Positions 520 to 44,510 of a stretch of 44,510 nt of DNA are shown here, one piece after another. Source of the stretch: Enterobacteria phage mEp460. The stretch is taken from sequence record NC_019716.1; one strand, written 5' to 3'. Positions within the stretch are counted from its first letter, which is position 1. Every line of letters begins with the position of its first letter. The notes beneath the pieces were generated by a model. That model saw nothing but the letters and a program-made list of their open reading frames with translations, searched no databases and had not been told where the DNA came from. Made by a program: the position numbers and the translations under genes.

Positions 520-2621
520 TGCTGAATCAGGAAACCGCAAAGGCAGCACGAACCGATTCAGGTTATATCCTTCGCGCACCGAGACGAATGCGGGTTGCTG
601 ATGCCGTTGCTCAGTATATGCGGGTGCCCATGGGGGCAGGGAACTCAGTCCCGTGGGATCCGCTGGTGGCACCGTATGTTATTGAGCCGATGAACTGCCT
701 GGCCTCGCGTGAATACGACGCAGTGATATTTGTTGGTCCGGCACGAACCGGCAAGACTATCGGCCTGATTGACGGCTGGGTGATTTACAACGTGATTTGC
801 GATCCTGCGGATATGCTGATCATTCAGATGACGGAGGAAAAAGCCCGCGAACACTCCAAAAAACGACTTGCCAGAACGTTTCGCGTCAGCCCGGAAGTGG
901 TCAGTCGCCTGAGTCCGAACAAAAATGACAACAACGTTTATGACAGAACATTCCTTGCTGGCAACTACCTGAAAATCGGCTGGCCGTCAGTCAATATCAT
1001 GTCCTCATCAGATTATAAATGCGTGGCGCTGACGGATTATGACCGTTTTCCGGAAGATATTGATGGCGAGGGGGATGCCTTCTCTCTTGCCTCAAAACGT
1101 ACCACCACATTTATGTCCAGTGGTATGACGCTGGTGGAGAGTTCCCCCGGCAGGGATGTGAAGGATGTGAAATGGCGACGGACTTCACCGCATGAGGCTC
1201 CACCAACCACGGGGATACTGTCGCTCTATAACCGTGGCGATCGCCGTCGCTGGTACTGGCCCTGTCCACACTGTGGTGAGTATTTTCAGCCCTGCGGCGA
1301 TGTGGTTGCTGGTTTCCGTGATATTGCCGATCCCGTGCTGGCAAGTGAGGCGGCTTATATTCAGTGTCCTTCCTGTTCAGGACGGATTATGCCTGAACAA
1401 AAACGTGAGCTGAACGGACGTGGGGTCTGGTTGCGGGATGGTGAATCCATCAATGCGGATGGTAGTCGTTATGGTGATCCCCGACGCTCACGTATTGCGT
1501 CATTCTGGATGGAGGGGCCGGCAGCTGCTTACCAGACACTCTCGCAACTCGTTTACAAACTGCTTACTGCAGAACAGGAATACGAGACAACCGGAAGTGA
1601 AGAAACACTCAAGACGGTTATCAATACCGACTGGGGATTACCTTATCTTCCCCGCGCCAGCATGGAGCAACGAAAAAGTGAACTGCTTGAGCAGCGGGCA
1701 GAGCCAGTTCCTTCCCGCAGTGTGCCGGATGGCGTTAATTTCCTTGTGGCGACAGTGGATGTGCAGGCGGGACGTCATCGCCGTTTTGTGGTTCAGGTAA
1801 CGGGCTATGGCAGCCGTGGCGAACGCTGGATTATTGATCGTTACAACATCACGCAGTCATTGCGCGGTGACAGCGACGGGGAGAGCCAGCGAATTGATCC
1901 GGCCAGCTATCCGGAAGACTGGGATGTCCTGCTGACGGATGTTTTTCATAAAAGCTGGCCGCTGGCCTCCGATCCTTCTCAACAAATGCGACTGATGGCA
2001 ATGGCGGTGGACTCCGGCGGTGAGGACGGGGTCACTGATAATGCCTATAAATTCTGGCGTCGTTGCCGTCGTGATGGCCTTGGTAAACGTATTTACCTGT
2101 TTAAGGGCGACAGCATCCGGCGCGCAAAACTGATCAGCCGTACATTCCCTGATAACACCGGACGAACGGGCCGACGGGCGCAGGCCGCAGGTGATGTGCC
2201 GCTCTGGCTTCTTCAGACGGATGCCCTGAAAGACCGGGTGAATAACGCGTTATGGCGTGACTCGCCAGGTCCCGGCTATGTGCATTTCCCTGACTGGCTG
2301 GGAAGCTGGTTTTACGACGAACTGACGTATGAAGAGCGGAGCAGTGACGGGAAATGGAGTAAGCCGGGTCGCGGTGCCAACGAAGCTTTTGACCTGATGG
2401 TGTATGCCGAGGCTCTGGTCATTCTGCATGGATACGAAAAGATCCGCTGGCCGGATGCACCGGAGTGGGCGAGCCGGGAAACCTGGCTGGAGTGTGTCCC
2501 GGACAGTACCGAACCGTCACCCACACCGGAACCGGTATCCACGCCTGTTAAAAAACAAAAACGGAAGAAAACAGTAACTGACGATGTTAACCCCTGGCTG
2601 ACTTCCGGAGGATGGTTATGA
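519..2621 (+). CDS. Terminase large subunit (gpA-like ATPase/nuclease)
   Basis: 700-aa ORF with Walker A-like motif (GPARTGKT), gpA-type architecture, immediately after small subunit. Confidence 0.9.
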   Translation: MLNQETAKAARTDSGYILRAPRRMRVADAVAQYMRVPMGAGNSVPWDPLVAPYVIEPMNCLASREYDAVIFVGPARTGKTIGLIDGWVIYNVICDPADMLIIQMTEEKAREHSKKRLARTFRVSPEVVSRLSPNKNDNNVYDRTFLAGNYLKIGWPSVNIMSSSDYKCVALTDYDRFPEDIDGEGDAFSLASKRTTTFMSSGMTLVESSPGRDVKDVKWRRTSPHEAPPTTGILSLYNRGDRRRWYWPCPHCGEYFQPCGDVVAGFRDIADPVLASEAAYIQCPSCSGRIMPEQKRELNGRGVWLRDGESINADGSRYGDPRRSRIASFWMEGPAAAYQTLSQLVYKLLTAEQEYETTGSEETLKTVINTDWGLPYLPRASMEQRKSELLEQRAEPVPSRSVPDGVNFLVATVDVQAGRHRRFVVQVTGYGSRGERWIIDRYNITQSLRGDSDGESQRIDPASYPEDWDVLLTDVFHKSWPLASDPSQQMRLMAMAVDSGGEDGVTDNAYKFWRRCRRDGLGKRIYLFKGDSIRRAKLISRTFPDNTGRTGRRAQAAGDVPLWLLQTDALKDRVNNALWRDSPGPGYVHFPDWLGSWFYDELTYEERSSDGKWSKPGRGANEAFDLMVYAEALVILHGYEKIRWPDAPEWASRETWLECVPDSTEPSPTPEPVSTPVKKQKRKKTVTDDVNPWLTSGGWL

Positions 2622-2830
2622 ACCAGAATGATATTGAAGCCATGATTCAGCGTTATACGGAAGCTGAAATGGCGGTGCTGGACGGAAAATCCGTCACTTT
2701 TAATGGTCAGCAGATGACCATGGAAAACTTATCTGAGATCCGGCAGGGTCGGCAGGAGTGGGAGCGCCGCCTTGCGGCTCTGATTACACGACGACGGGGG
2801 CATCCCGGGTACCGGCTGGCGAGGTTCTGA
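2618..2830 (+). CDS. Head-tail joining protein gpW-like
   Basis: 70-aa ORF resembling lambda gpW, positioned between terminase and portal; GGAGGA SD 6 nt upstream of ATG 2618; stop overlaps portal ATG. Confidence 0.7.
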   Translation: MNQNDIEAMIQRYTEAEMAVLDGKSVTFNGQQMTMENLSEIRQGRQEWERRLAALITRRRGHPGYRLARF

Positions 2831-4338
2831 TGGCAATTCTTGATGATGTGATTGGCGTTTTTTCACCTGGATGGAAAGCGGCAAGGCTGCGTTCCCGTGC
2901 GGTGATCCAGGCTTATGAGGCCGTAAAAACGACGCGGACACACAAAGCCCGGCGGGAAAACCGAACTGCCGACCAGTTAAGCCAGTACGGGGCCGTGTCG
3001 TTACGTGAGCAGGCCCGTTACCTTGATAACAACCACGATCTGGTTATTGGTGTATTTGACAAGCTGGAAGAACGGGTGGTGGGGAAAAACGGGATTATTG
3101 TCGAGCCACATCCGGTATCACGCAATGGGGCCATTGCCCGTGACCTGGCAGCGGAGATACGCACCCGATGGAGTGAATGGTCTGTCAGTCCGGAAGTCAC
3201 CGGGCAGTTCACCCGCCCGATGCTGGAACGTCTGATGCTGCGTACCTGGCTGCGCGATGGTGAGGTGTTTGCCCAGATGGTTTCCGGGCGCATAAACAGC
3301 CTGACGCCTTCTGCCGGTGTTCATTTCTGGCTGGAGGCGCTCGAGCCGGACTTTATTCCCATGACCAGTGATGAGAGCAACAGGCTGAATCAGGGCGTGT
3401 TTGTTGATGACTGGGGGCGTCCCGAAAAATATCTGGTGTATAAAAGCCGTCCCGTATCCGGACGGCAGATGGAAACCAAAGAAGTGGATGCAGAGCGAAT
3501 GCTGCATCTTAAATTTGTTCGCCGTCTGCACCAGATGCGCGGGACGTCTTTGTTGTCCGGTGTGCTGATCCGCCTCAGTGCCCTGAAAGAGTATGAAGAT
3601 TCTGAGCTGACTGCAGCAAGGATCGCCGCTGCTCTGGGGATGTACATCCGCAAAGGCGACGGGCAGAGCTATGAACCGGATGGTAATGGCAGCAAGGATA
3701 AGGAACGCGAGCTTACCATTCAGCCAGGCATTATTTACGACGATCTGAAACCCGGCGAAGAAATCGGAATGGTGAAGTCGGATCGTCCCAATCCTAACCT
3801 TGAAACTTTTCGTAATGGTCAGTTGCGTGCCGTGGCGGCGGGCAGTCGTCTGAGTTTTTCCAGTACAGCGCGCAACTATAACGGCACTTACAGCGCCCAG
3901 CGTCAGGAGCTGGTTGAATCCACTGATGGCTACCTGATCCTGCAGGACTGGTTTATTGGTGCCGTCACCCGCCCGATGTATCGTGCCTGGCTGAAACAGG
4001 CTGTGGCATCCGGTGTTATCAGACTACCCCGCGATCTTGACCGTTCTTCACTGTATACCGCGGTGTATTCCGGACCGGTGATGCCGTGGATTGACCCTGT
4101 TAAGGAGGCTGAGGCCTGGAAAATTCAGATTCGTGGTGGAGCAGCGACAGAATCAGACTGGGTACGTGCAGGTGGTCGTAATCCGGATGATGTCAAACGT
4201 CGGCGCAAGGCCGAAATTGATGAAAACCGCAAGCTGGATCTGGTATTTGATACCGATCCGGCCAGTGATAAAGGAGGCAGCAGTGCCGCAACGAAACGAC
4301 AGGAGCCGCAGCACACCGACGACCAGTCCGAAGAATAA
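2830..4338 (+). CDS. Portal protein (gpB-like)
   Basis: About 500-aa ORF in portal position; ATG overlaps gpW stop (TGATG); ORF-track start at 2758 is an upstream extension in the same frame. Confidence 0.85.
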   Translation: MAILDDVIGVFSPGWKAARLRSRAVIQAYEAVKTTRTHKARRENRTADQLSQYGAVSLREQARYLDNNHDLVIGVFDKLEERVVGKNGIIVEPHPVSRNGAIARDLAAEIRTRWSEWSVSPEVTGQFTRPMLERLMLRTWLRDGEVFAQMVSGRINSLTPSAGVHFWLEALEPDFIPMTSDESNRLNQGVFVDDWGRPEKYLVYKSRPVSGRQMETKEVDAERMLHLKFVRRLHQMRGTSLLSGVLIRLSALKEYEDSELTAARIAAALGMYIRKGDGQSYEPDGNGSKDKERELTIQPGIIYDDLKPGEEIGMVKSDRPNPNLETFRNGQLRAVAAGSRLSFSSTARNYNGTYSAQRQELVESTDGYLILQDWFIGAVTRPMYRAWLKQAVASGVIRLPRDLDRSSLYTAVYSGPVMPWIDPVKEAEAWKIQIRGGAATESDWVRAGGRNPDDVKRRRKAEIDENRKLDLVFDTDPASDKGGSSAATKRQEPQHTDDQSEE

Positions 4339-33425: not shown

Positions 33426-33510
33426 TTCTGCCATTCCGGGACGTTACACTGTTCAGGCACCTTATAAAGCGGGTGCCGGGCGTGGAAACCCGGAATTCAC
33501 CAAAGCGCAC

Positions 33511-33534
33511 AACCGCGCTCTTGCGGTTTTTTTG
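33511..33534 (+). terminator. Intrinsic terminator in the early-right operon (tR1-like)
   Basis: AACCGC-GCTCTT-GCGGTT hairpin followed by TTTTTTT. Confidence 0.6.
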
Positions 33535-33702
33535 TGTAATGAGCAGCATTACGCCCAAATTATGGTGGGGCGTGCAGGGCCAACTTCGGTTGGGCCGGGT
33601 TCTTTGGTGACCGGTATTTCCACCCCTGTACGTCTCACCACCAATAAGGTCGTGGAAAGCCTTGGTGGTGAGTTATTAAAAATCACCAAAGAGGCTGCCA
33701 TC

Positions 33703-35775: not shown

Positions 35776-36428
35776 TGAGTAATAAATATTGCCAGGAGCT
35801 GGTGGAACTGCGGAACAAACCAGCCCATGAACTGAAGGAAGTGGGTGATCAGTGGCGCACGCCGGACAACATTTTCTGGGGAATTAACACCCTGTTTGGC
35901 CCGTTTGTTCTGGATCTGTTCACTGACGGTGATAACGCCAAATGTGCCGCGTATTACACGGCGGAAGACAACGCGCTGGCGCATGACTGGTCAGAACGCC
36001 TTGTGGAGCTTAAAGGTGCTGCCTTTGGTAATCCTCCATACAGCCGCGCCAGTCAGCATGAGGGGCAATACATCACCGGCATGCGTTACATCATGAAACA
36101 TGCCAGTGCCATGCGTGATAAGGGCGGGCGCTATGTTTTCCTGATCAAAGCTGCCACCAGCGAAGTGTGGTGGCCGGAAGATGCAGATCATATTGCTTTT
36201 ATTCGCGGGCGTATTGGTTTTGAACTGCCTGTCTGGTTTATCCCGAAAGACGAGAAGCAGGTACCGACAGGAGCTTTTTTCGCTGGTGCTATTGCTGTTT
36301 TTGACAAGACCTGGAAGGGACCGGCAATCAGCTACATCGGGCGCGATGAACTTGAGGCATGTGGTGAGGCGTTTCTGGCGCAGGTTCGCCAGCAGGCGGA
36401 AAAACTGGTCAGGGAGATGGTGGCATGA
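35775..36428 (+). CDS. Phage Dam-like DNA N6-adenine methyltransferase (orphan)
   Basis: GNPPYS catalytic motif; start at ATG 35775 (MSNKY) overlapping upstream stop; no adjacent restriction gene. Confidence 0.75.
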   Translation: MSNKYCQELVELRNKPAHELKEVGDQWRTPDNIFWGINTLFGPFVLDLFTDGDNAKCAAYYTAEDNALAHDWSERLVELKGAAFGNPPYSRASQHEGQYITGMRYIMKHASAMRDKGGRYVFLIKAATSEVWWPEDADHIAFIRGRIGFELPVWFIPKDEKQVPTGAFFAGAIAVFDKTWKGPAISYIGRDELEACGEAFLAQVRQQAEKLVREMVA

Positions 36429-36751
36429 CGACGTTAACTCAATGCCAGCAGCAGGTGCTGGATATGCTGATTTCTTATCAGAAAGAACGTGGCTTCCCGC
36501 CAACCAATCAGGAGGTGGCAACCATGCTGGGATACCGTTCAGTGAATGCAGCGGTGGAGCATCTTCGCGCACTGGAGAAAAAAGGCGTCATCACGATAAA
36601 GCGTGGCGTGGCCCGGGGGATAACGCTTCATACCGCGGTGAAGGACGACGACAGCGAGGCGGTCGGGATTATCCGCTCACTGCTTGCCGGTGAGGAAAAC
36701 GCAAGGCTGCGTGCAACCCACTGGTTACATGAGAGGGGCCTGAAAGCATGA
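36425..36751 (+). CDS. LexA N-terminal DNA-binding-domain homolog lacking the S24 peptidase domain
   Basis: 108 aa; LT.CQQQVLDMLISYQKERGFPPTNQEVATMLGYRSVNAAVEHLRALEKKGVITIKRGVARGITL parallels the LexA winged-HTH; short helical tail. Confidence 0.6.
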   Translation: MTTLTQCQQQVLDMLISYQKERGFPPTNQEVATMLGYRSVNAAVEHLRALEKKGVITIKRGVARGITLHTAVKDDDSEAVGIIRSLLAGEENARLRATHWLHERGLKA

Positions 36752-37137
36752 AGCTGATCCTGCCTTTTCCGCCCAGCGTGAACACGTACTGGCGACACCC
36801 CAACAAAGGGGCGTTTGCTGGTAAGAGCCTGATAAGCGCGGCGGGGCGCAAATTCCAGAGCGCGGCGTGTGCAGCAATAGTTGAGCAGTTACGTCGTCTG
36901 CCGAAACCAACGTCGGCACCTGCTTCAGTGGAGATCGTGTTGTTTCCTCCGGATAACCGGATCCGCGATCTGGACAACTATAACAAGGCGCTGTTTGACG
37001 CCCTGACCCACGCGGGTGTGTGGGAAGACGACAGTCAGGTGAAAAGAATGCTGGTGGAGTGGGGACCGGTTATCCCGAAAGGGAAGGTCGAGATCACTAT
37101 CAGTAAGTACGAGAAAACGGCGGGTGCAGCCGCCTGA
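36748..37137 (+). CDS. rusA: RusA Holliday-junction resolvase
   Basis: 129 aa; PPSVNTYWRH and RDLDNYNKALFDALT...WEDDSQV motifs. Confidence 0.8.
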   Translation: MKLILPFPPSVNTYWRHPNKGAFAGKSLISAAGRKFQSAACAAIVEQLRRLPKPTSAPASVEIVLFPPDNRIRDLDNYNKALFDALTHAGVWEDDSQVKRMLVEWGPVIPKGKVEITISKYEKTAGAAA

Positions 37138-37156
37138 TCAAGAGGAGAAACGAAGT

Positions 37157-37966
37157 ATGAATAATCTGATGGTCATTGATGGTATTGAAGTTCGTCGTGA
37201 TGCTTATGGGCGTTACAGCCTGAACGATCTGCATCGCGCAGCAGTAGCATCTGGTGCAAATGCCAGAACCAAGGAGCCGGGAAAGTTTCTTTCCAGCCAA
37301 CAAACTGTTGAGCTTGTTCATGAATTGACCAACACCCAGAATTTGGGTGTTGACCCGGTGAGTGTGATTCATGGGGGAAATGAACGGGGAACGTATGTCT
37401 GCAAGGAACTGGTGTATGCCTATGCAATGTGGATCAGCCCGTCATTCCATCTGAAGGTGATCCGTACTTTCGATATGGTAACCAGCGCACCGGAAAAATT
37501 ATCCGGACAGGCTGCTGACAAGATGCAGGCTGGCGTGATCCTGCTGGACTTTATGCGCCGGGAGTTAAACCTGTCTAACTCTTCAGTGCTTGGTGCCTGT
37601 CAGAAACTCCAGGAGGCTGTTGGCTTACCGAATCTGGCACCGCGCTATGCCATTGATGCTCCTGCTGATGCACACGATGGCTCAAGTCGCCCGACACTGT
37701 CACTGAGTGCACTGCTGAAACAGTATGGTATACGCCTGACAGCTAATCAGGCATATCACCAGATGGTGAAACTGGGGATCGTCGAGCAGCGCGAACGATA
37801 CAGCCGTACCGCGATTAACAACATCAAAAAATTCTGGTCGCTGACAGCGAAAGGTTGCATGTTCGGCAAGAACATCACCAGTCCCGCAAATCCGCGCGAG
37901 ACGCAGCCGCATTTCTTCGAATCCCGATTCCCTGAGCTGTTAAAGCTGCTCGATACCGTTCATTGA
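37157..37966 (+). CDS. KilA-N domain protein (antirepressor-like)
   Basis: N-terminal KilA-N pattern (IDGIEVRRDAYGRYSLNDLHRAA...GTYVCKELVYAYAMWISPSFHLKVIRTFD); start at ATG 37157. Confidence 0.6.
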   Translation: MNNLMVIDGIEVRRDAYGRYSLNDLHRAAVASGANARTKEPGKFLSSQQTVELVHELTNTQNLGVDPVSVIHGGNERGTYVCKELVYAYAMWISPSFHLKVIRTFDMVTSAPEKLSGQAADKMQAGVILLDFMRRELNLSNSSVLGACQKLQEAVGLPNLAPRYAIDAPADAHDGSSRPTLSLSALLKQYGIRLTANQAYHQMVKLGIVEQRERYSRTAINNIKKFWSLTAKGCMFGKNITSPANPRETQPHFFESRFPELLKLLDTVH

Positions 37967-37967
37967 G

Positions 37968-38963
37968 GTGACCGTGAGAGCACTACTGACCCCTGAAATT
38001 GCCCCGCGTATGGGGATCGTATTGTTCAGGCCAGGTTCAGAGCTGATGCCCCTGTTTATGCAGGGGCGTGTCCTGCTGGAGCCTGAGCCGGAGCGTTATT
38101 CATCTTTCGCCAGTGGTGCCGTTCCGGCGGCATCACAACCGCTGGCGGATGATCCTGCCGTTCGGGCCGTGTTCCGCAATGAGGCAGTGATCCGTCGTGC
38201 TGGTGGCGTGGAATGTCTTGAAAGCTGGTTACTTCGTGAAAAAGGCTGCCAGTGGCCTCATTCCGACTGGCACAGCGAGAACATGACCACAATGCGACAC
38301 GCTCCGGGTGCAATCCGTCTGTGCTGGCACTGCGATAACCAGCTGCGCGATCAGTTCACGGAACGGCTGGAATCAATGGCAACGGATAACTGTGCCCGCT
38401 GGGTGTTGTCTGTTGTGCGTCGGGATCTCGGTTTTGATGACAGTCACGTTGTGACAATGCCTGAACTGTGCTGGTGGCTGATTCGTAATGATCTGGCGGA
38501 TGCCTTACCGGAAAGTGCAGCCCGTAAGGCACTGAGATTACCGAAGCCTGTTGTGCCGTCTGTTACCCGGGAAAGTGACCTTGTGCCTTCGGTTCCTGCC
38601 ACCAGCATCATCCAGGATAAGGCGAAAAAGGTGCTGGCGCTGAAAGTGGATCCGGAGTCGCCGGAGTCTTTTATGTTACGCCCAAAACGTCGCCGCTGGG
38701 TTAATGAAAAGTACACGCGCTGGGTTAAGACACAGCCGTGTGCATGTTGTGGAAAGCCCGCTGATGATCCCCACCACCTGATAGGTCACGGTCAGGGTGG
38801 AATGGGAACAAAAGCGCATGACCTTTTTGTGTTGCCTTTGTGCAGAAAGCATCACGACGAGCTGCATGCGGATACCGTGGCATTTGAAGAGAAGTATGGC
38901 TCCCAGCTGGAGCTGATATTTCGTTTTATCGATCGTGCGCTGGCAATTGGCGTATTGGCGTAA
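37968..38963 (+). CDS. DUF968-type protein with C-terminal HNH/Zn-finger-like motif
   Basis: 331 aa (GTG start in track); C-terminal CACCGKPADDPHHL.GHG.GGMGTKAHD...PLCRKHHDELH cluster. Confidence 0.5.
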   Translation: MTVRALLTPEIAPRMGIVLFRPGSELMPLFMQGRVLLEPEPERYSSFASGAVPAASQPLADDPAVRAVFRNEAVIRRAGGVECLESWLLREKGCQWPHSDWHSENMTTMRHAPGAIRLCWHCDNQLRDQFTERLESMATDNCARWVLSVVRRDLGFDDSHVVTMPELCWWLIRNDLADALPESAARKALRLPKPVVPSVTRESDLVPSVPATSIIQDKAKKVLALKVDPESPESFMLRPKRRRWVNEKYTRWVKTQPCACCGKPADDPHHLIGHGQGGMGTKAHDLFVLPLCRKHHDELHADTVAFEEKYGSQLELIFRFIDRALAIGVLA

Positions 38964-38976
38964 GTGGAGAACGAGC

Positions 38977-39729
38977 ATGAACCTTGAAGCCTTACCAAAA
39001 TATTACTCCCCAAAATCTCCAAAATTGAGCGATGACGCACCGGCGACAGGCTCAGGTGGTTTAACGATTACGGATGTGATGGCTGCGCAGGGGATGGTGC
39101 AGTCGAAAGCACCGCTTGGGTTTGCCTTATTCCTGGCAAAAGTTGGTGTTCAGGATCCTCAATTTGCGATTGAAGGTCTGCTCAATTACGCGATGGCACT
39201 GGATAACCCGACATTGAACAAATTGAGTGAAGAAACCCGGTTACAGATCATCCCTTACCTTGTGAATTTTGCCTTTGCTGATTATTCCAGGTCTGCGGCA
39301 AGTAAGGCTCGCTGTGAGCATTGTGCTGGTACTGGATTTCATAATGTATTGCGCGAAGTGGTGAAACACTCCAGAAGCGGGGAATCTGTTATCAAGGAAG
39401 AGTGGGTGAAGGAACTATGTCAGCATTGTCATGGTAAGGGAGAAGTCAGCACAGCGTGCAGAGGGTGTAAGGGTAAAGGTATTGTCCTGGATGAAAAAAG
39501 GACCCGGCTTCATGGCACGCCTGTTTATAAGATTTGTGGGCGTTGCAATGGAAACCGGTTTAGCCGTTTACCAACCACACTGGCGCGGCATCATGTCCAG
39601 AAGCTGGTACCAGACCTGACGGATTATCAGTGGTACAAAGGATATGCAGATGTCATTGATAAACTGGTTACAAAGTGCTGGCAGGAAGAAGCATATGCAG
39701 AGATACAATTGAGAAAGGTGACAAGATAA
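38977..39729 (+). CDS. Late antitermination protein Q
   Basis: About 250 aa with Cys-rich Zn-binding segment (CEHCAGTG...CQHCHGKGE...CRGCKGKG...CGRCNG); followed by promoter and terminator. Confidence 0.75.
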   Translation: MNLEALPKYYSPKSPKLSDDAPATGSGGLTITDVMAAQGMVQSKAPLGFALFLAKVGVQDPQFAIEGLLNYAMALDNPTLNKLSEETRLQIIPYLVNFAFADYSRSAASKARCEHCAGTGFHNVLREVVKHSRSGESVIKEEWVKELCQHCHGKGEVSTACRGCKGKGIVLDEKRTRLHGTPVYKICGRCNGNRFSRLPTTLARHHVQKLVPDLTDYQWYKGYADVIDKLVTKCWQEEAYAEIQLRKVTR

Positions 39730-39760
39730 ATGGTTTTCGCCGAAGATGACGACATGATGC

Positions 39761-39789
39761 TTGCATTTTTCAAAAAATATGGATAAGAT
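39761..39789 (+). promoter_or_regulatory. Putative late promoter pR' (TTGCAT-17-TAAGAT)
   Basis: Sigma70-like hexamers with 17-bp spacer, 30 bp after Q stop and about 50 nt before a terminator. Confidence 0.45.
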
Positions 39790-39835
39790 TTTCCCAACGA
39801 TGGGCTTTGTATGTCTACCGTTGATAAGATTTAAG

Positions 39836-39860
39836 AACCCGCCCCTGAGCGGGTTTTTTT
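39836..39860 (+). terminator. tR'-like intrinsic terminator
   Basis: AACCCGCCCC-TGAG-CGGGTTTTTTT. Confidence 0.65.
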
Positions 39861-40009
39861 GTGCCTGATGTCTCATGAAACTATGAAATGGATTGGTGCG
39901 TTAAACATTTTTTCTTATTATCTTTTAGATTTTGGAGAGATGGTTAACGTCTGTATTCCAGAAACTCGATGATTATTTAATAAATTAGTTTCAATGATGC
40001 TTCTAGGTT

Positions 40010-40435
40010 ATGACTGTAATGAAAAAGGTATTAATAGCAGCGATAGGTTTTTGTTTAGTTGGTTGTGCAGGTATGAAATTACCTGAGTATTCGCAAGTTA
40101 AAGCAAGTCCGTATTATACAGATTGCCGTGCGTTTGCCATGGATGTTTATAAAAATGATGGATACAGCAAAATTGCGAAAACTACTATCCTTAGCATGGA
40201 TGATGTGAAGGCTAGATATATTGTGACAGGGTGTGTAGTTGCTATGGGGAAAAACACTGTAGAGGAAATCAAAGCTGATCTCTCTGCTAAAGGGAGTTCT
40301 TTTGGGCTTATCAGTGGAGCTTGTTCTAGTGCGGCATGTCGGGTTGATGTAGAGCAGCAAATGAACGCTTATGTACTTGGTAGTTATTATGCTGCAAATA
40401 AAAAATTCCCGGATAAAATGAAAGCAGAGTTTTAA
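40010..40435 (+). CDS. Lipoprotein moron (signal peptide plus LVGC lipobox), function unknown
   Basis: 141 aa; N-terminal hydrophobic stretch ending in LVGC; six further Cys; AT-rich codons; between tR' and a second terminator. Confidence 0.6.
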   Translation: MTVMKKVLIAAIGFCLVGCAGMKLPEYSQVKASPYYTDCRAFAMDVYKNDGYSKIAKTTILSMDDVKARYIVTGCVVAMGKNTVEEIKADLSAKGSSFGLISGACSSAACRVDVEQQMNAYVLGSYYAANKKFPDKMKAEF

Positions 40436-40512
40436 GTAAACCTTGTTTTCGATTATATGTCGAAGATAAATGTTAGTAACGGCATAATAAGTAAATATAT
40501 AGCTGTAATAGC

Positions 40513-40537
40513 AACCCGCCACTGAGCGGGTTTTTTG
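40513..40537 (+). terminator. Intrinsic terminator, near-identical copy of tR'
   Basis: AACCCGCCACTGAGCGGGTTTTTTGTACCTG versus AACCCGCCCCTGAGCGGGTTTTTTTGTGCCTG at 39836. Confidence 0.65.
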
Positions 40538-40634
40538 TACCTGTAAACTTGGTGCAGTACAGTAAACACGCTGGTGGTCGTGAATACTGACTTTTTATCT
40601 TGCTGGCTTTTTAGACAAGAGTTATTGGTATGTC

Positions 40635-40862
40635 ATGTTAACCAGAAGGGAAAAAGACATGCTAAAACAGCAAGATATGACAGAAACCGCCGCCGCAGTC
40701 CTTCATTTCTTACCTGCTGACAAGTGGGTAACGCCACGCATGATGACGAGAACTACCGGAGTAAGCGAAGCCCGGTGCCAGTTAATACTGACTCAGTTAG
40801 TTCTGGCGGGTCTGGCGAAGGATAACGGCGGGTACGGGAATAAATTCAGACGCTGCCAGTAA
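40635..40862 (+). CDS. Small hypothetical protein, possibly winged-helix
   Basis: 75-aa ORF (possible start ATG 40659) upstream of the methyltransferase gene. Confidence 0.35.
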   Translation: MLTRREKDMLKQQDMTETAAAVLHFLPADKWVTPRMMTRTTGVSEARCQLILTQLVLAGLAKDNGGYGNKFRRCQ

Positions 40863-41012
40863 TGGCGGTTTCCTGCTGTGAAAATGGGCGGCTGGTGGGT
40901 GTTGGTAGCACCTGCCAGCCATTCGCTCATGCTTACTGGTCACAAGCGAACCACGGCCCACTGCTTTAGCGCAAAAGCAGAGTGAGCCTACCAGAGTTAC
41001 GCTTACTGATCC

Positions 41013-42065
41013 ATGAAAAATACTGTAAAAATAAACAGTGCTGATTTAATCAACGCTGATTGCCTGCATTTTATTCAGTCCCTGCCTGATGATTCCATTG
41101 ACCTGATTGTTACCGATCCGCCGTACTTCAAGGTGAAACCCAACGGCTGGGACAATCAGTGGAAAGGGGACGAAGATTACCTTAAGTGGCTGGACCACTG
41201 TCTGGCCCAGTTCTGGCGGGTGTTAAAACCTGCCGGAAGCCTTTACCTGTTCTGTGGGCATCGCCTGGCATCTGATATTGAGATCATGATGCGTGAACGT
41301 TTCAACGTGCTTAACCATATCATCTGGGCGAAGCCGTCCGGACGTTGGAATGGGTGTAATAAAGAAAGTCTGCGCGCATATTTTCCTGCCACAGAGCGCG
41401 TTCTGTTTGCTGAACATTACCAGGGGCCATATCGTGGCAAAAGTGACGGCTATGCGGCAAAAGAAAGGGAACTCAAACAGCACATAATGGCACCGCTGAT
41501 ATCGTATTTCAGGGATGCTCGTGCCGAACTGGGTATAACGGCAAAACAAATTGCCGAAGCCACAGGTAAGAAAAATATGGTTTCCCACTGGTTTGGTGCC
41601 AGTCAGTGGCAGTTGCCGAATGAGGCTGACTATCGGAAGTTACAGGCACTGTTTTCCCGTATAGCGGCAGAGAAGTTTCAGGAACAACAACTGGAACAAC
41701 CACACCACCAGCTGGTGGCATCTTATGATTCACTGAATCGCAAATATTCTGAATTGCTGGATGAGTTTAAATCTCTCCGGCGCTATTTCTCCGTATCAGT
41801 CTCCGTGCCTTATACCGATGTCTGGATGCATAAACCCGTTCAGTTCTACCCGGGTAAACATCCGTGTGAGAAACCGGCGGATATGCTCAGGCAAATAATC
41901 AATGCCAGTAGTCGACCCGGTGATCTGGTTGCTGATTTTTTTATGGGATCCGGTTCCACAATAAAAGCAGCAATGGCGCTGGGGCGTCGGGCCTTAGGTG
42001 TTGAGCTTGAGTCAGAGCGGTTTAACCAGACAGTGAAAGAGATAAACGAGCTGGTGGGGAAATAA
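41013..42065 (+). CDS. Beta-class DNA methyltransferase (N6-adenine or N4-cytosine), orphan
   Basis: DPPY catalytic motif N-terminal (LIVTDPPYF), AdoMet motif C-terminal (DFFMGSGST); no partner restriction gene. Confidence 0.85.
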
Positions 42066-42132
42066 TCTGGTGGCCACGTCAGGTGGCCTTTTTATTTCCA
42101 TTACACAGCACCCGCATCTGCGAGGTGGGGTT

Positions 42133-42348
42133 ATGAAATCCATGGATAAGTTAACAACGGGTGTCGCCTATGGCACCTCAGCAGGTAGTGCCGGGTACTG
42201 GTTTTTACAGTTGCTCGATAAAGTCACGCCCTCACAGTGGGCGGCAATAGGTGTGCTGGGTAGTCTGGTATTTGGCCTGCTGACGTACCTGACAAACCTT
42301 TATTTCAAGATTAAAGAAGACAAGCGTAAGGCTGCACGGGGAGAGTAA
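42133..42348 (+). CDS. Class II holin, phage 21 S-like pinholin with dual-start motif
   Basis: [26 protein letters not shown]... with two TMDs and charged C-terminus; GAGGTGG SD; M1/M4 dual start. Confidence 0.75.
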
Positions 42349-42352
42349 TTCA

Positions 42353-42667
42353 ATGACTCAAAACTATGAACTGATTGTGAAAGGGATCCGCAATTTTGAG
42401 AATAAAGTTACGGTAACTTTAGCGTTACGGGACAAAAACCGCTTTGACGGTGAAATTTTTGACCTGGACATCTCGCTGGACCGTGTTGAAGGTGCCGCGC
42501 TGGAGTTTTATGAGGCAGCAGCCAGAAGGAGCATCAGACAGGTCTTCCTGGATGTTGCTGCCGGGTTATGTGAAGGGGACGAGCTGTTGCCAGAAACGCG
42601 CCCCTGTTCAGAGGCGCGGTATACCATAAAAATTAACAGTTCTGATAACTCGATTACGGGTTGTTAG
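42353..42667 (+). CDS. Hypothetical protein inserted between holin and endolysin
   Basis: 104-aa ORF, no TM segments, acidic; function unknown. Confidence 0.45.
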   Translation: MTQNYELIVKGIRNFENKVTVTLALRDKNRFDGEIFDLDISLDRVEGAALEFYEAAARRSIRQVFLDVAAGLCEGDELLPETRPCSEARYTIKINSSDNSITGC

Positions 42668-42722
42668 CTTTTTGCAGTTGGCTTTCCAGTATCTTTCATT
42701 GGTAGCATCCTGATAAATATCC

Positions 42723-43256
42723 ATGAGCGCAAAAATCAAATACGGCCTGTCAGCTGCTGTTCTGGCGCTGATTGCTGCAGGCGCGTCTGCTCCTCAAATC
42801 CTTGACCAGTTTCTTGATGAAAAAGAGGGTAACCACACTACGGCATACCGCGATGGTTCCGGTATATGGACCATCTGTCGTGGTGCCACAATGGTGGATG
42901 GTAAGCCCGTCATACCGGGAATGAAGCTGTCGAAGGAAAAATGCGACCAGGTTAACGCTATTGAACGTGATAAGGCGCTGGCATGGGTGGAGCGCAATAT
43001 TAAAGTACCACTGACCGAACCACAGAAAGCGGGTATAGCGTCATTTTGTCCCTATAACATTGGCCCCGGTAAGTGTTTCCCGTCGACGTTTTATAAGCGG
43101 CTGAATGCCGGTGATCGTAAGGGTGCATGTGAGGCGATTCGCTGGTGGATAAAAGATGGTGGGCGCGATTGCCGCATACGTTCAAATAACTGCTATGGAC
43201 AGGTTATTCGTCGTGACCAGGAAAGCGCATTAGCCTGTTGGGGGATAGATGAGTGA
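42723..43256 (+). CDS. SAR endolysin (T4-lysozyme-like muramidase with N-terminal signal-anchor-release domain)
   Basis: N-terminal weakly hydrophobic Ala/Gly-rich segment, then E-8aa-D-5aa-T catalytic triad ([18 protein letters not shown]). Confidence 0.85.
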
Positions 43257-43720
43257 GCAGAGTCGCCGCGATTATTTATGCTCTGGTTATCTGCATCATC
43301 GTCTGCCTGTCGTGGGCGGTCAATCATTACCGTGATAACGCCATCGCCTACAAAGAACAGCGTGATAAAAAAGTCAGTGAGCTGAAGCAGGCGACCGCCA
43401 CCATTACTGACATGCAGCAACGCCAGCGTGCTGCTGATGTACTCGATGCTAAATACACGAAGGAGTTGGCTGATGCGAAAGCTGAAAATGATGCTCTTCG
43501 GCGCAAGCTTGATAATGGTGGTCGGGTGCTCGTCAAAGGAAAATGCTCTGTGCCATCCTCAGCCGAAACCTCCAGCGCCTCCGGCATGGGCAATGATGCC
43601 ACCGTCGAACTCTCTCCAGTTGCTGGACGAAACGTTCTCGGTATCCGGGACGGAATCATCAGAGACCAGACAGCACTGAGAACGCTTCAGGAATATATCA
43701 GGACGCAATGCCTTCGATGA
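43253..43720 (+). CDS. Rz i-spanin
   Basis: 155 aa, N-terminal TMD, coiled-coil periplasmic region; ATGA overlap with endolysin. Confidence 0.75.
43473..43679 (+). CDS. Rz1 o-spanin lipoprotein, embedded in +1 frame of Rz
   Basis: [21 protein letters not shown] lipobox followed by Pro-rich stretch (PQPKPPAPP), entirely within Rz. Confidence 0.65.
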
Positions 43721-43860
43721 TAGCGATAATTTTACTCATCATCCTTCACATTTGGCTCTGTAGACAGGGTGGTGATCACTTCTGGAGTGAATCCAGATTA
43801 AATATCTCATTGCTGATGCTTGATATTGAGCATCTTGCGCGCGGTAAGGGGCTGCGTTGA
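43717..43860 (+). CDS. Putative small membrane protein (47 aa), not in ORF track
   Basis: ATG overlaps Rz stop (ATGA); hydrophobic N-terminus [14 protein letters not shown]; speculative. Confidence 0.2.
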
Positions 43861-43894
43861 GATAAGAGCCAGTCATTACAAATACCAGGATTTA

Positions 43895-43917
43895 GCCTCG
43901 CATTCGCGGGGCTTTTT
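43895..43917 (+). terminator. Intrinsic terminator downstream of lysis cassette
   Basis: GCCTCGC-ATT-CGCGGGGC hairpin followed by TTTTT. Confidence 0.45.
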
Positions 43918-44001
43918 ATTGCCATTACAAAAGCCACTCCCTACAGAGTGGCTTTGATAATGGCTTATACCCTACACGGGATAGCTTAACTGATATCCCT
44001 T

Positions 44002-44217
44002 TTAACGGATAAAGGTATTCAAGCCTGACACATCATGCGCTGTATCGTCGCCGTATTCCCGTATTAACAGAGACCGTAGCCCGACGGGGAACTCCTTCTG
44101 CGCGAGTGTGCGGGAATAATCAAAAACGATGCACGCCGGGTTTTTACCGCGTTTATGGTTCGCGGGTTTGTCCCTCATGCTCGCCAGTCCTGTGCGGGGG
44201 TGGAAGAAACAGGACAC
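44002..44217 (-). CDS. Hypothetical ORF
   Basis: 71-aa ORF, only candidate in the right-end region; hairpin downstream on its strand; weak. Confidence 0.2.
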   Translation of the reverse strand: MSCFFHPRTGLASMRDKPANHKRGKNPACIVFDYSRTLAQKEFPVGLRSLLIREYGDDTAHDVSGLNTFIR

Positions 44218-44510
44218 TTACACAGATTCTTGTGGGCACGATGCTATGCCTTTCTGGATTATCCCGATGCCATTCATGCAAGGCGTTGTATCAGACGTTC
44301 GTCAGAGCTGTCAGGCTGACGGGTCCTCCCGGTGGGGTGGCCTGCCACGGGGCGGGAGCGGCGCGGAAAAAGGCTAGTTTTTGAAATTTCATTCGTCATC
44401 ACCACTACTGTAATATATTGATATTACGGTGATTTTATTTTTATGGTGTCGATTTTGATTGTTTTTTGTTCGCCACTAACACCGTTTGCCTAAAGTTGTT
44501 CGCAAGATGC

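Follow-up and report, generated by a model that had tools for sequence, protein, structure and literature searches.

What is the 104-codon open reading frame that separates the holin gene S from the endolysin gene R in the lysis cassette of Enterobacteria phage mEp460, and does it take part in lysis? The window, meaning the whole stretch of 44,510 nucleotides analysed here (NC_019716.1), carries this frame within a type of phage gene cassette that is among the best studied. A first-pass annotation, made from the sequence, had presented it as an unknown gene in an unusual place. The gene is in fact already known: it is ydfR, an annotated gene of thousands of E. coli genomes with a namesake in K-12, and its position is ordinary. 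A search of the literature on rrrQ/essQ and on pinholin/SAR-endolysin systems found no description of an S-R insert. What the comparison adds is its linkage to one endolysin type, a hand-over of the ribosome-binding site, the recognition of the downstream gap as a gene remnant, and a hypervariable hotspot between S and R. On balance, the cassette is best explained as carrying an accessory YdfR gene that would be expressed late, would bind RNase E and would alter the translation of R.

A coding gene inside the lysis cassette

The cassette contains the following features.

42133..42348, + strand: S21-type pinholin gene S, 71 aa (PF04971, E 2e-35; phrog_9876, holin)
42338..42345, + strand: Shine-Dalgarno (SD) site of ydfR, GGGGAGAG, within the last codons of S
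42353..42667, + strand: ydfR-family open reading frame, ATG start, TAG stop, 104 aa
42642..42667, + strand: weak hairpin, then CTTTTTG, at the 3' end of ydfR (scan match; 11 pairs, 4 of them G-C)
42723..43256, + strand: RrrQ/933W-type SAR endolysin gene R, 177 aa (PF00959, E 1.1e-24, residues 33-167)
43253..43720, + strand: Rz spanin gene (PF03245, E 8e-29)
43473..43679, + strand: Rz1, embedded in Rz in the +1 frame (PF06085, E 3.7e-21)

These genes place the locus among the pinholin/SAR-endolysin cassettes. The S21 pinholin has a dual start, ATG 42133 and ATG 42142, corresponding to Met1 and Met4 of the N-terminus MKSMDK; the lysozyme begins with a Gly/Ala-rich, SAR-like segment, a putative SAR domain as read from the sequence; and Rz1 lies within Rz. 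The endolysin is 93% identical to K-12 RrrQ. As it shares no more than about 34% identity with the R21 type, the cassette is typed as Qin/933W and not as phage 21 proper.

The frame starts 4 nt past the S stop, and the endolysin gene begins 55 nt downstream of it. As the first-pass annotation had stated, its 104-aa product is acidic and soluble: the pI is 4.7, with 18 Asp and Glu against 13 Lys and Arg, and the Kyte-Doolittle 19-mer maximum is 0.75, with no transmembrane or signal segment. The length of the frame by itself proves nothing, because the region holds dozens of chance frames of 30-120 aa. Homology, a Shine-Dalgarno site and purifying selection together mark it as a true protein-coding gene. 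The site GGGGAGAG pairs with the anti-SD at -8.5 kcal/mol, within about the top 5% of 21-mers in the window (5th percentile, -7.4 kcal/mol). Among close ydfR haplotypes, 23 synonymous and 31 non-synonymous changes segregate, a per-site N/S of 0.40 (p=0.0016). Fisher tests of non-synonymous against synonymous changes agree for the pairs window/K-12 (p=4e-4) and window/Stx2-86 (p=7e-5). The frame is conserved and has the signals for translation.

Upstream, the features that bear on expression are these.

38977..39729, + strand: Q-type antiterminator gene (PF03589 Antiterm, E 9.6e-54; likewise annotated in the E. coli SC516 prophage described below)
40513..40532: terminator-like hairpin (scan)
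41013..42065, + strand: N6/N4 DNA methyltransferase gene, 350 aa (PF01555), separating the Q region from the lysis cassette
42072..42096, + strand: terminator-like hairpin with T-run in the methylase-S interval (hairpin 42072..42088, GGCCAC-GTCAG-GTGGCC, then TTTTTATTTC)

A scan for promoter-like sites between S and Rz, including the S-R interval, found none, and the terminator scan of the S-R interval gave a single weak terminator-like hairpin, at 42642..42667. With the Q antiterminator gene upstream and no promoter-like site between S and R, co-expression of ydfR with the late lysis genes, proposed at first pass, is well supported. Q-modified RNA polymerase would read through the terminator-like hairpins into the cassette.

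Family identity and distribution

The homology search that the first-pass annotation had suggested is answered alike by Pfam, PHROG, the K-12 protein and an identical RefSeq copy, and the statement that the product has no recognisable motif does not hold. Against Pfam DUF1327 (PF07041) it scores 133.1 bits, where the gathering cutoff is 25 (E 4.1e-39), with residues 1-96 aligned to profile positions 1-90 of 93, and the match to phrog_2735 extends over its full length (E 5e-55). K-12 YdfR (b1555, P76160) is 65% identical overall and 81% identical across residues 1-74; the window protein departs from it at 14 of the 74 core positions, and the two tails are unrelated. E. coli SC516 encodes a 100%-identical copy that RefSeq labels 'YdfR family protein' (WP_016063397.1), in a prophage 98.6% identical to window positions 36353..44510. 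Phage records give homologues the same label, "YdfR family protein", and place them between holin S and lysozyme R. With the HMM match, the homology to the namesake and the position between a holin and an RrrQ-type endolysin all found, membership of the YdfR/DUF1327 family is close to certain.

All five PHROG matches are listed under 'unknown function', with the lysis category in 0/5, and the Pfam and PHROG searches found no similarity to a known antiholin or lysis-category PHROG. No NCBIfam model was found for the window protein, and PDB sequence and profile searches returned nothing, leaving no relative with a solved structure. The PADLOC defence HMMs gave no match for the window protein or for the 176-aa and 268-aa alleles; a 161-aa allele (P0008) had a marginal Csm5 match (E 0.0095).

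The gene is abundant within a narrow group of hosts. By megablast, the 315-nt frame is matched in 4249 of 5426 complete E. coli genomes, a single genome holding as many as 8 copies, and matches spanning at least 80% of it occur in 2099 genomes. At 90% identity the family forms 260 clusters, and at 50% identity a set of 1.84 billion proteins yields 63 representatives. Among species-representative genomes it is found in Escherichia only, apart from two MAG contigs resembling misbinned enterobacterial DNA, and it also has a Salmonella branch. The family is taxonomically narrow. Three giant repeat proteins (P0149, P0156 and P0166; 818-3128 aa) came up as candidate relatives through several short-stretch matches to the 104-aa query (E 5e-10 to 2e-4); they carry repeated G2F, bacterial Ig, cadherin-like or lipoprotein-associated domains, and the matches were judged spurious, reflecting composition or beta-strands.

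Occupancy of the S-R interval

The synteny of S-R intervals, also proposed as a check at first pass, was compared in three anchored samples of IMG/VR loci, built on the holin, on YdfR and on the RrrQ-type endolysin. In the holin-anchored sample (99-100% identical holin, n=74), 65 loci have an R21-type endolysin abutting S without ydfR, and 9 carry ydfR with an RrrQ-type endolysin. The larger group is the phage 21/DLP12-type arrangement, which shares the pinholin family (99-100% identical proteins in this sample) and the order S, R, Rz/Rz1 with the window but differs in its endolysin, about 34% identical to the window's, and in the absence of ydfR. The RrrQ-anchored sample (n=75) divides into 42 loci with ydfR, 16 with R 4 nt after S as in 933W, and 17 with other inserts. 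The expectation that holin and endolysin genes are normally adjacent thus stands for R21-type cassettes and fails for the RrrQ type, where 16 of 75 are adjacent. Adjacency is the rule for R21-type cassettes only; in RrrQ-type cassettes an occupied interval is the majority state, and with ydfR in 42 of 75 such loci the interruption can hardly be called unusual.

The YdfR-anchored sample (n=87) shows how regular the arrangement is. Wherever S is present, ydfR starts 4 nt after its stop. In loci with enough downstream sequence, the endolysin that follows is of the RrrQ type in 81/81 and of the R21 type in 0/81. The distances from ydfR to R take discrete values of -4, 53, 55, 63, 321, 343, 370 and 452 nt. 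Three loci with a 104-aa ydfR and S (within L085-L171) have more than 1.5 kb downstream without a detectable RrrQ- or R21-type endolysin, and these could be rearranged or degraded cassettes.

The K-12 Qin cryptic prophage has the order essQ-ydfR-rrrQ-rzpQ/rzoQ, with ydfR in the same slot as in the window, 4 nt after the stop of an S21-type holin. Its YdfR differs in having an unrelated tail from about residue 75 and a stop that overlaps the rrrQ ATG, where the window has a 55-nt gap with a gene remnant. YdfR is the usual accessory gene of the Qin-type lysis cassette in Escherichia lambdoid prophages.

The Salmonella prophages (contigs L175-L177, about 2570..4212) separate the holin from the rest of this arrangement. 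Upstream of ydfR they have a different holin (PF16080), and directly upstream of ydfR lies a degraded 3' remnant of an S21-type holin gene that includes the SD. They keep the series ydfR, reverse 79-aa frame and RrrQ-type endolysin (72% identical). Since this module is retained behind another holin, the tightest linkage is that of ydfR with the RrrQ-type endolysin. Such strict linkage fits a lysis-specific role as well as it fits plain genetic linkage.

The slot itself is open to other genes. The other inserts in the RrrQ-anchored sample (17/75 loci) measure 560-1100 nt and hold a forward frame of 186-223 aa or reverse-strand frames of 104-122 aa. The forward frame (MNHEEMNQRF...) sits at the +4 position in cassettes without ydfR (within L178-L257, for example L200, L213 and L189). 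The junction also hosts phrog_21218, phrog_1853 and a DUF1823-annotated frame. The S-R interval is a hypervariable insertion hotspot.

The gap and the translation of R

Between the ydfR stop and the R start lie two features.

42668..42707, - strand: 3' remnant of a 79-aa gene on the reverse strand (phrog_21218), from the alignment with phage Perceval
42708..42722, + strand: SD-less leader of the RrrQ-type endolysin, TCCTGATAAATATCC, the last 15 nt of the gap

The 55-nt gap was correctly measured at first pass (42668..42722). Phage Perceval, which has the same 104-aa ydfR followed by 370 nt before the endolysin, carries the 79-aa reverse gene intact (L002 2812..3051, - strand), unannotated there and a member of phrog_21218 (E 1.9e-57); a Salmonella homologue, 81% identical, is intact in prophages. 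Relative to Perceval, the window lacks about 315 bp, and the deletion lies between short TCC(A/T)GAT repeats. By this alignment the gap is a deletion scar and not a neutral spacer. The leader TCCTGATAAATATCC is identical in Perceval and shares 11/15 nt with K-12 Qin.

The weak hairpin just upstream may be a leftover terminator between once-convergent genes, an idea that is not statistically supported. An RNA element spanning the 3' end of ydfR and the gap was considered and rejected, as the fold of 42642..42667 (z = -1.17) is no better than that of shuffled sequence. No Rfam match was found at the ydfR 3' end or in the gap.

Comparison with the 933W/Stx2a-phage cassette indicates what the insertion does to R. 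That cassette shares the S21-type holin, the RrrQ-type endolysin, the SD embedded in S and a start codon that follows the S stop by 4 nt, but there the start codon belongs to R and ydfR is absent. The same S-embedded site serves the 933W endolysin and the window ydfR, at -8.5 kcal/mol for both. Because the ribosome-binding site that serves the endolysin in ydfR-less cassettes is taken by ydfR, R is left with an SD-less leader: the anti-SD energy of that leader is +0.6 kcal/mol in the window and Perceval and +1.2 kcal/mol in K-12. In the RrrQ-anchored sample, the R leaders of all 42 ydfR-positive loci range from -1.5 to +0.6 kcal/mol and have no SD. R is SD-less whenever anything is inserted between S and R. 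Whatever the protein does, the presence of ydfR thus appears to change how the endolysin is translated, and it would probably lower endolysin translation or couple R to the translation of ydfR.

How far coupling could reach depends on the allele. Translational coupling classically involves a stop/start overlap of the form ATGA, and the ydfR stop and rrrQ start of K-12 overlap in exactly this way. Across the 55 nt of the window, coupling would be at best weak re-initiation. In alleles with gaps of 343-452 nt it is impossible, and R there retains the same SD-less leader.

Anatomy and evolution of the protein

The product divides into two parts.

42353..42574, + strand: conserved N-terminal domain, codons 1-74 (AF2 model, alignments, identity to K-12)
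42575..42664, + strand: variable C-terminal tail, codons 75-104 (alignments, low pLDDT)

In alignments of the family, a core of about 74-85 residues is conserved and the tails beyond it diverge; the alleles fall into length classes of 103, 104, 114/116, 161, 176, 183, 206 and 268 aa. An AF2 model of the window protein, built with 28 sequences, gives the core antiparallel strands at 5-15, 18-27 and 34-43 and a long helix at 50-73, with block pLDDT of 72-90 over residues 1-70. The product is predicted to be a small cytoplasmic protein with a 74-residue beta-beta-beta-alpha domain. At residues 76-96 and 99-104 pLDDT falls below 50, and the tail (residues 76-104) is predicted to be disordered and fast-evolving. 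The structure search suggested at first pass was unproductive: searches with this model found no informative structural neighbour. Across Escherichia and Salmonella alleles of 66-98% identity, 25 residues are invariant, among them K10, G11, R13, N14, E16, K18, F31, G33-I35, D37 and G47-E54.

Some long alleles are composite. In the Stx2-86 allele, residues 154-268 share 81% identity with a free-standing frame of 186 aa that fills the same S-R slot in cassettes without ydfR, and the 176-aa allele contains another piece of that frame. By this comparison, the long alleles (176 and 268 aa) are DUF1327 domains fused with parts of the forward frame. Database variants also include frameshifted and truncated forms, such as the 119-aa P0019 and many partial entries.

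Purifying selection on ydfR is real but weak. In divergent pairs, codons 1-74 have a pN/pS of 0.31-0.65, whereas S and R of those pairs give 0.06-0.20, and the pS of ydfR is comparable to that of flanking S and R. The gene is coding, yet 3-6 times less constrained than its neighbours. Low synonymous diversity in ydfR, compared with the flanking genes, was also considered as a sign of nucleotide-level constraint; this was rejected, since the loci had been chosen by YdfR similarity and the pS of divergent pairs is like that of the flanks. Two loci (L152 and L164) combine an N-domain 99% identical to the window's with flanking S and R at pS of about 0.5, mosaics that imply recent recombinational spread of the window's ydfR allele.

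These comparisons bear on whether the gene belongs to the lysis machinery proper. Since the 933W-type cassette has the same types of S and R without ydfR, the gene is dispensable for such a holin-endolysin pair. With such S and R types found in its absence, and with constraint on it 3-6 times weaker, ydfR is best read as an accessory gene and not a core lysis gene.

Candidate functions

The lead on activity comes from the one experimental study of a family member, K-12 YdfR (Gopel et al., RNA Biol 2026, PMC13232886). When RNase G served as bait in a bacterial two-hybrid screen, a fragment made up of the first 72 ydfR codons was picked up three times. Two-hybrid signals of YdfR(1-72) were stronger with RNase E constructs than with RNase G, residues 1-72 bound the RNase E catalytic domain, and the full-length protein interacted with Rne(1-597); with a short linker, the full-length T25-YdfR fusion gave a positive signal with Rne(1-597) alone (PMC13232886). 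FLAG-tagged Rne(1-598) co-eluted with Strep-YdfR, and DNase-resistant nucleic acid (RNA) co-purified with YdfR, for which the authors consider a contaminant source possible (PMC13232886). This evidence concerns the K-12 allele and comes from two-hybrid assays and co-purification from overproducing cells (PMC13232886). Overproduction of K-12 YdfR was non-toxic, left growth unaffected and changed few transcripts, and the gene had almost no RNA-seq reads in standard growth (PMC13232886).

Because the K-12 interaction region (1-72) coincides with the conserved domain, binding of RNase E or RNA is taken, with modest confidence, to be what the window protein most likely does. Its N-domain would bind the catalytic half of host RNase E (and RNase G), possibly also RNA, and by analogy with the K-12 orthologue this binding would adjust RNA decay late in infection. 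As a mechanism for the window protein, extrapolated from the K-12 allele, this remains tentative.

Phage-encoded modulators of RNase E include T7 gp0.7, T4 Srd and phiKZ Dip. If the K-12 result transfers, YdfR would like them be small, phage-encoded and able to bind host RNase E during infection; searches found no sequence or fold homology to gp0.7, Srd or Dip. Should the binding be real and relevant in induction, YdfR would be a temperate-phage addition to this short list.

A first alternative keeps the gene within lysis. SAR-endolysin systems have known lysis regulators, among them the S21-71 antiholin, the Mu gp25 'releasin' and P1 LydB, most of which are membrane-associated or act on the holin. 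Like these, YdfR is encoded in the cassette and could influence when the SAR endolysin acts; unlike them, it has no hydrophobic segment, and it is homologous to none of them. As a regulator it would tune the timing or amount of SAR-endolysin action in the Qin-type cassette, either as a protein at the cytoplasmic face of the pinholin or the tethered endolysin, or through translational coupling to R. The constant position between S and R, the exclusive link to the RrrQ-type endolysin and never the R21 type, the survival of that link through the Salmonella holin swap, and an R gene without SD whenever ydfR is present, together with the K-12 ATGA overlap, are all consistent with such a role. The K-12 ydfR deletion strain also appears among the envelope-leakage hits of a CPRG screen (Paradis-Bleau et al. 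2014, PMC3879167 supplement), although we suspect that the kanamycin cassette produced this hit through polarity on rrrQ. Several results weigh against regulation: YdfR has no transmembrane segment, signal sequence, or similarity to a lysis PHROG or antiholin, 933W-type cassettes do without it, the unrelated genes in the same slot suggest an insertion hotspot and not a functional requirement, purifying selection on it is weak, unlike that on S and R, and overproduction of the K-12 protein had no growth effect (PMC13232886). A lysis regulator is accordingly unlikely, and the evidence favours an accessory, moron-like gene over it.

A moron in the strict sense, with a role outside lysis and RNA decay such as superinfection exclusion, defence or host fitness, would merely exploit a permissive site in the late operon. 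This would agree with the several unrelated forward and reverse frames at the S-R junction, the variable tails and the alleles fused with the 186-aa protein, the mosaic spread of a 99%-identical N-domain between flanks with pS of about 0.5, and the narrow taxonomy of the family. It is nevertheless quite unlikely, as the window protein has no PADLOC matches, the lack of an upstream promoter-like site means no expression from a repressed prophage, K-12 ydfR is nearly without RNA-seq reads in standard growth, and the interaction with RNase E reported for K-12 YdfR argues for a specific target in the cytoplasm (PMC13232886).

That the protein is decaying or dispensable, and that the frame persists mainly to deliver ribosomes to the SD-less endolysin start, would account for the elevated pN/pS, the frameshifted and truncated database variants and the leader of R without SD, but it is highly improbable given a pN/pS significantly below 1, 25 invariant residues across Escherichia and Salmonella alleles, and the same SD-less R leader at 343-452 nt from the ydfR stop, where re-initiation coupling cannot operate.

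The reading of ydfR as a late accessory gene that would bind RNase E and alter R translation can be extended to the whole family. The DUF1327 domain may be an unrecognised RNase E/RNase G-binding module of lambdoid phages, expressed only late, with swappable tails (104 to 268 aa, some joined to a second protein) as variable effectors and with an insertion that shifts the endolysin to SD-less or coupled translation. This extension is doubtful at present; if true, ydfR would link the control of host RNA decay with endolysin dosage at the end of infection.

Elsewhere in the window, Rfam identifies on the + strand an isrK Hfq-binding RNA (33457..33533, 67 bits) beside a C4 antisense RNA (33558..33645, 83.6 bits). 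The pair, at 33457..33645, suggests an antisense-controlled antirepressor region of the P1/P7 type in the mEp460 prophage.
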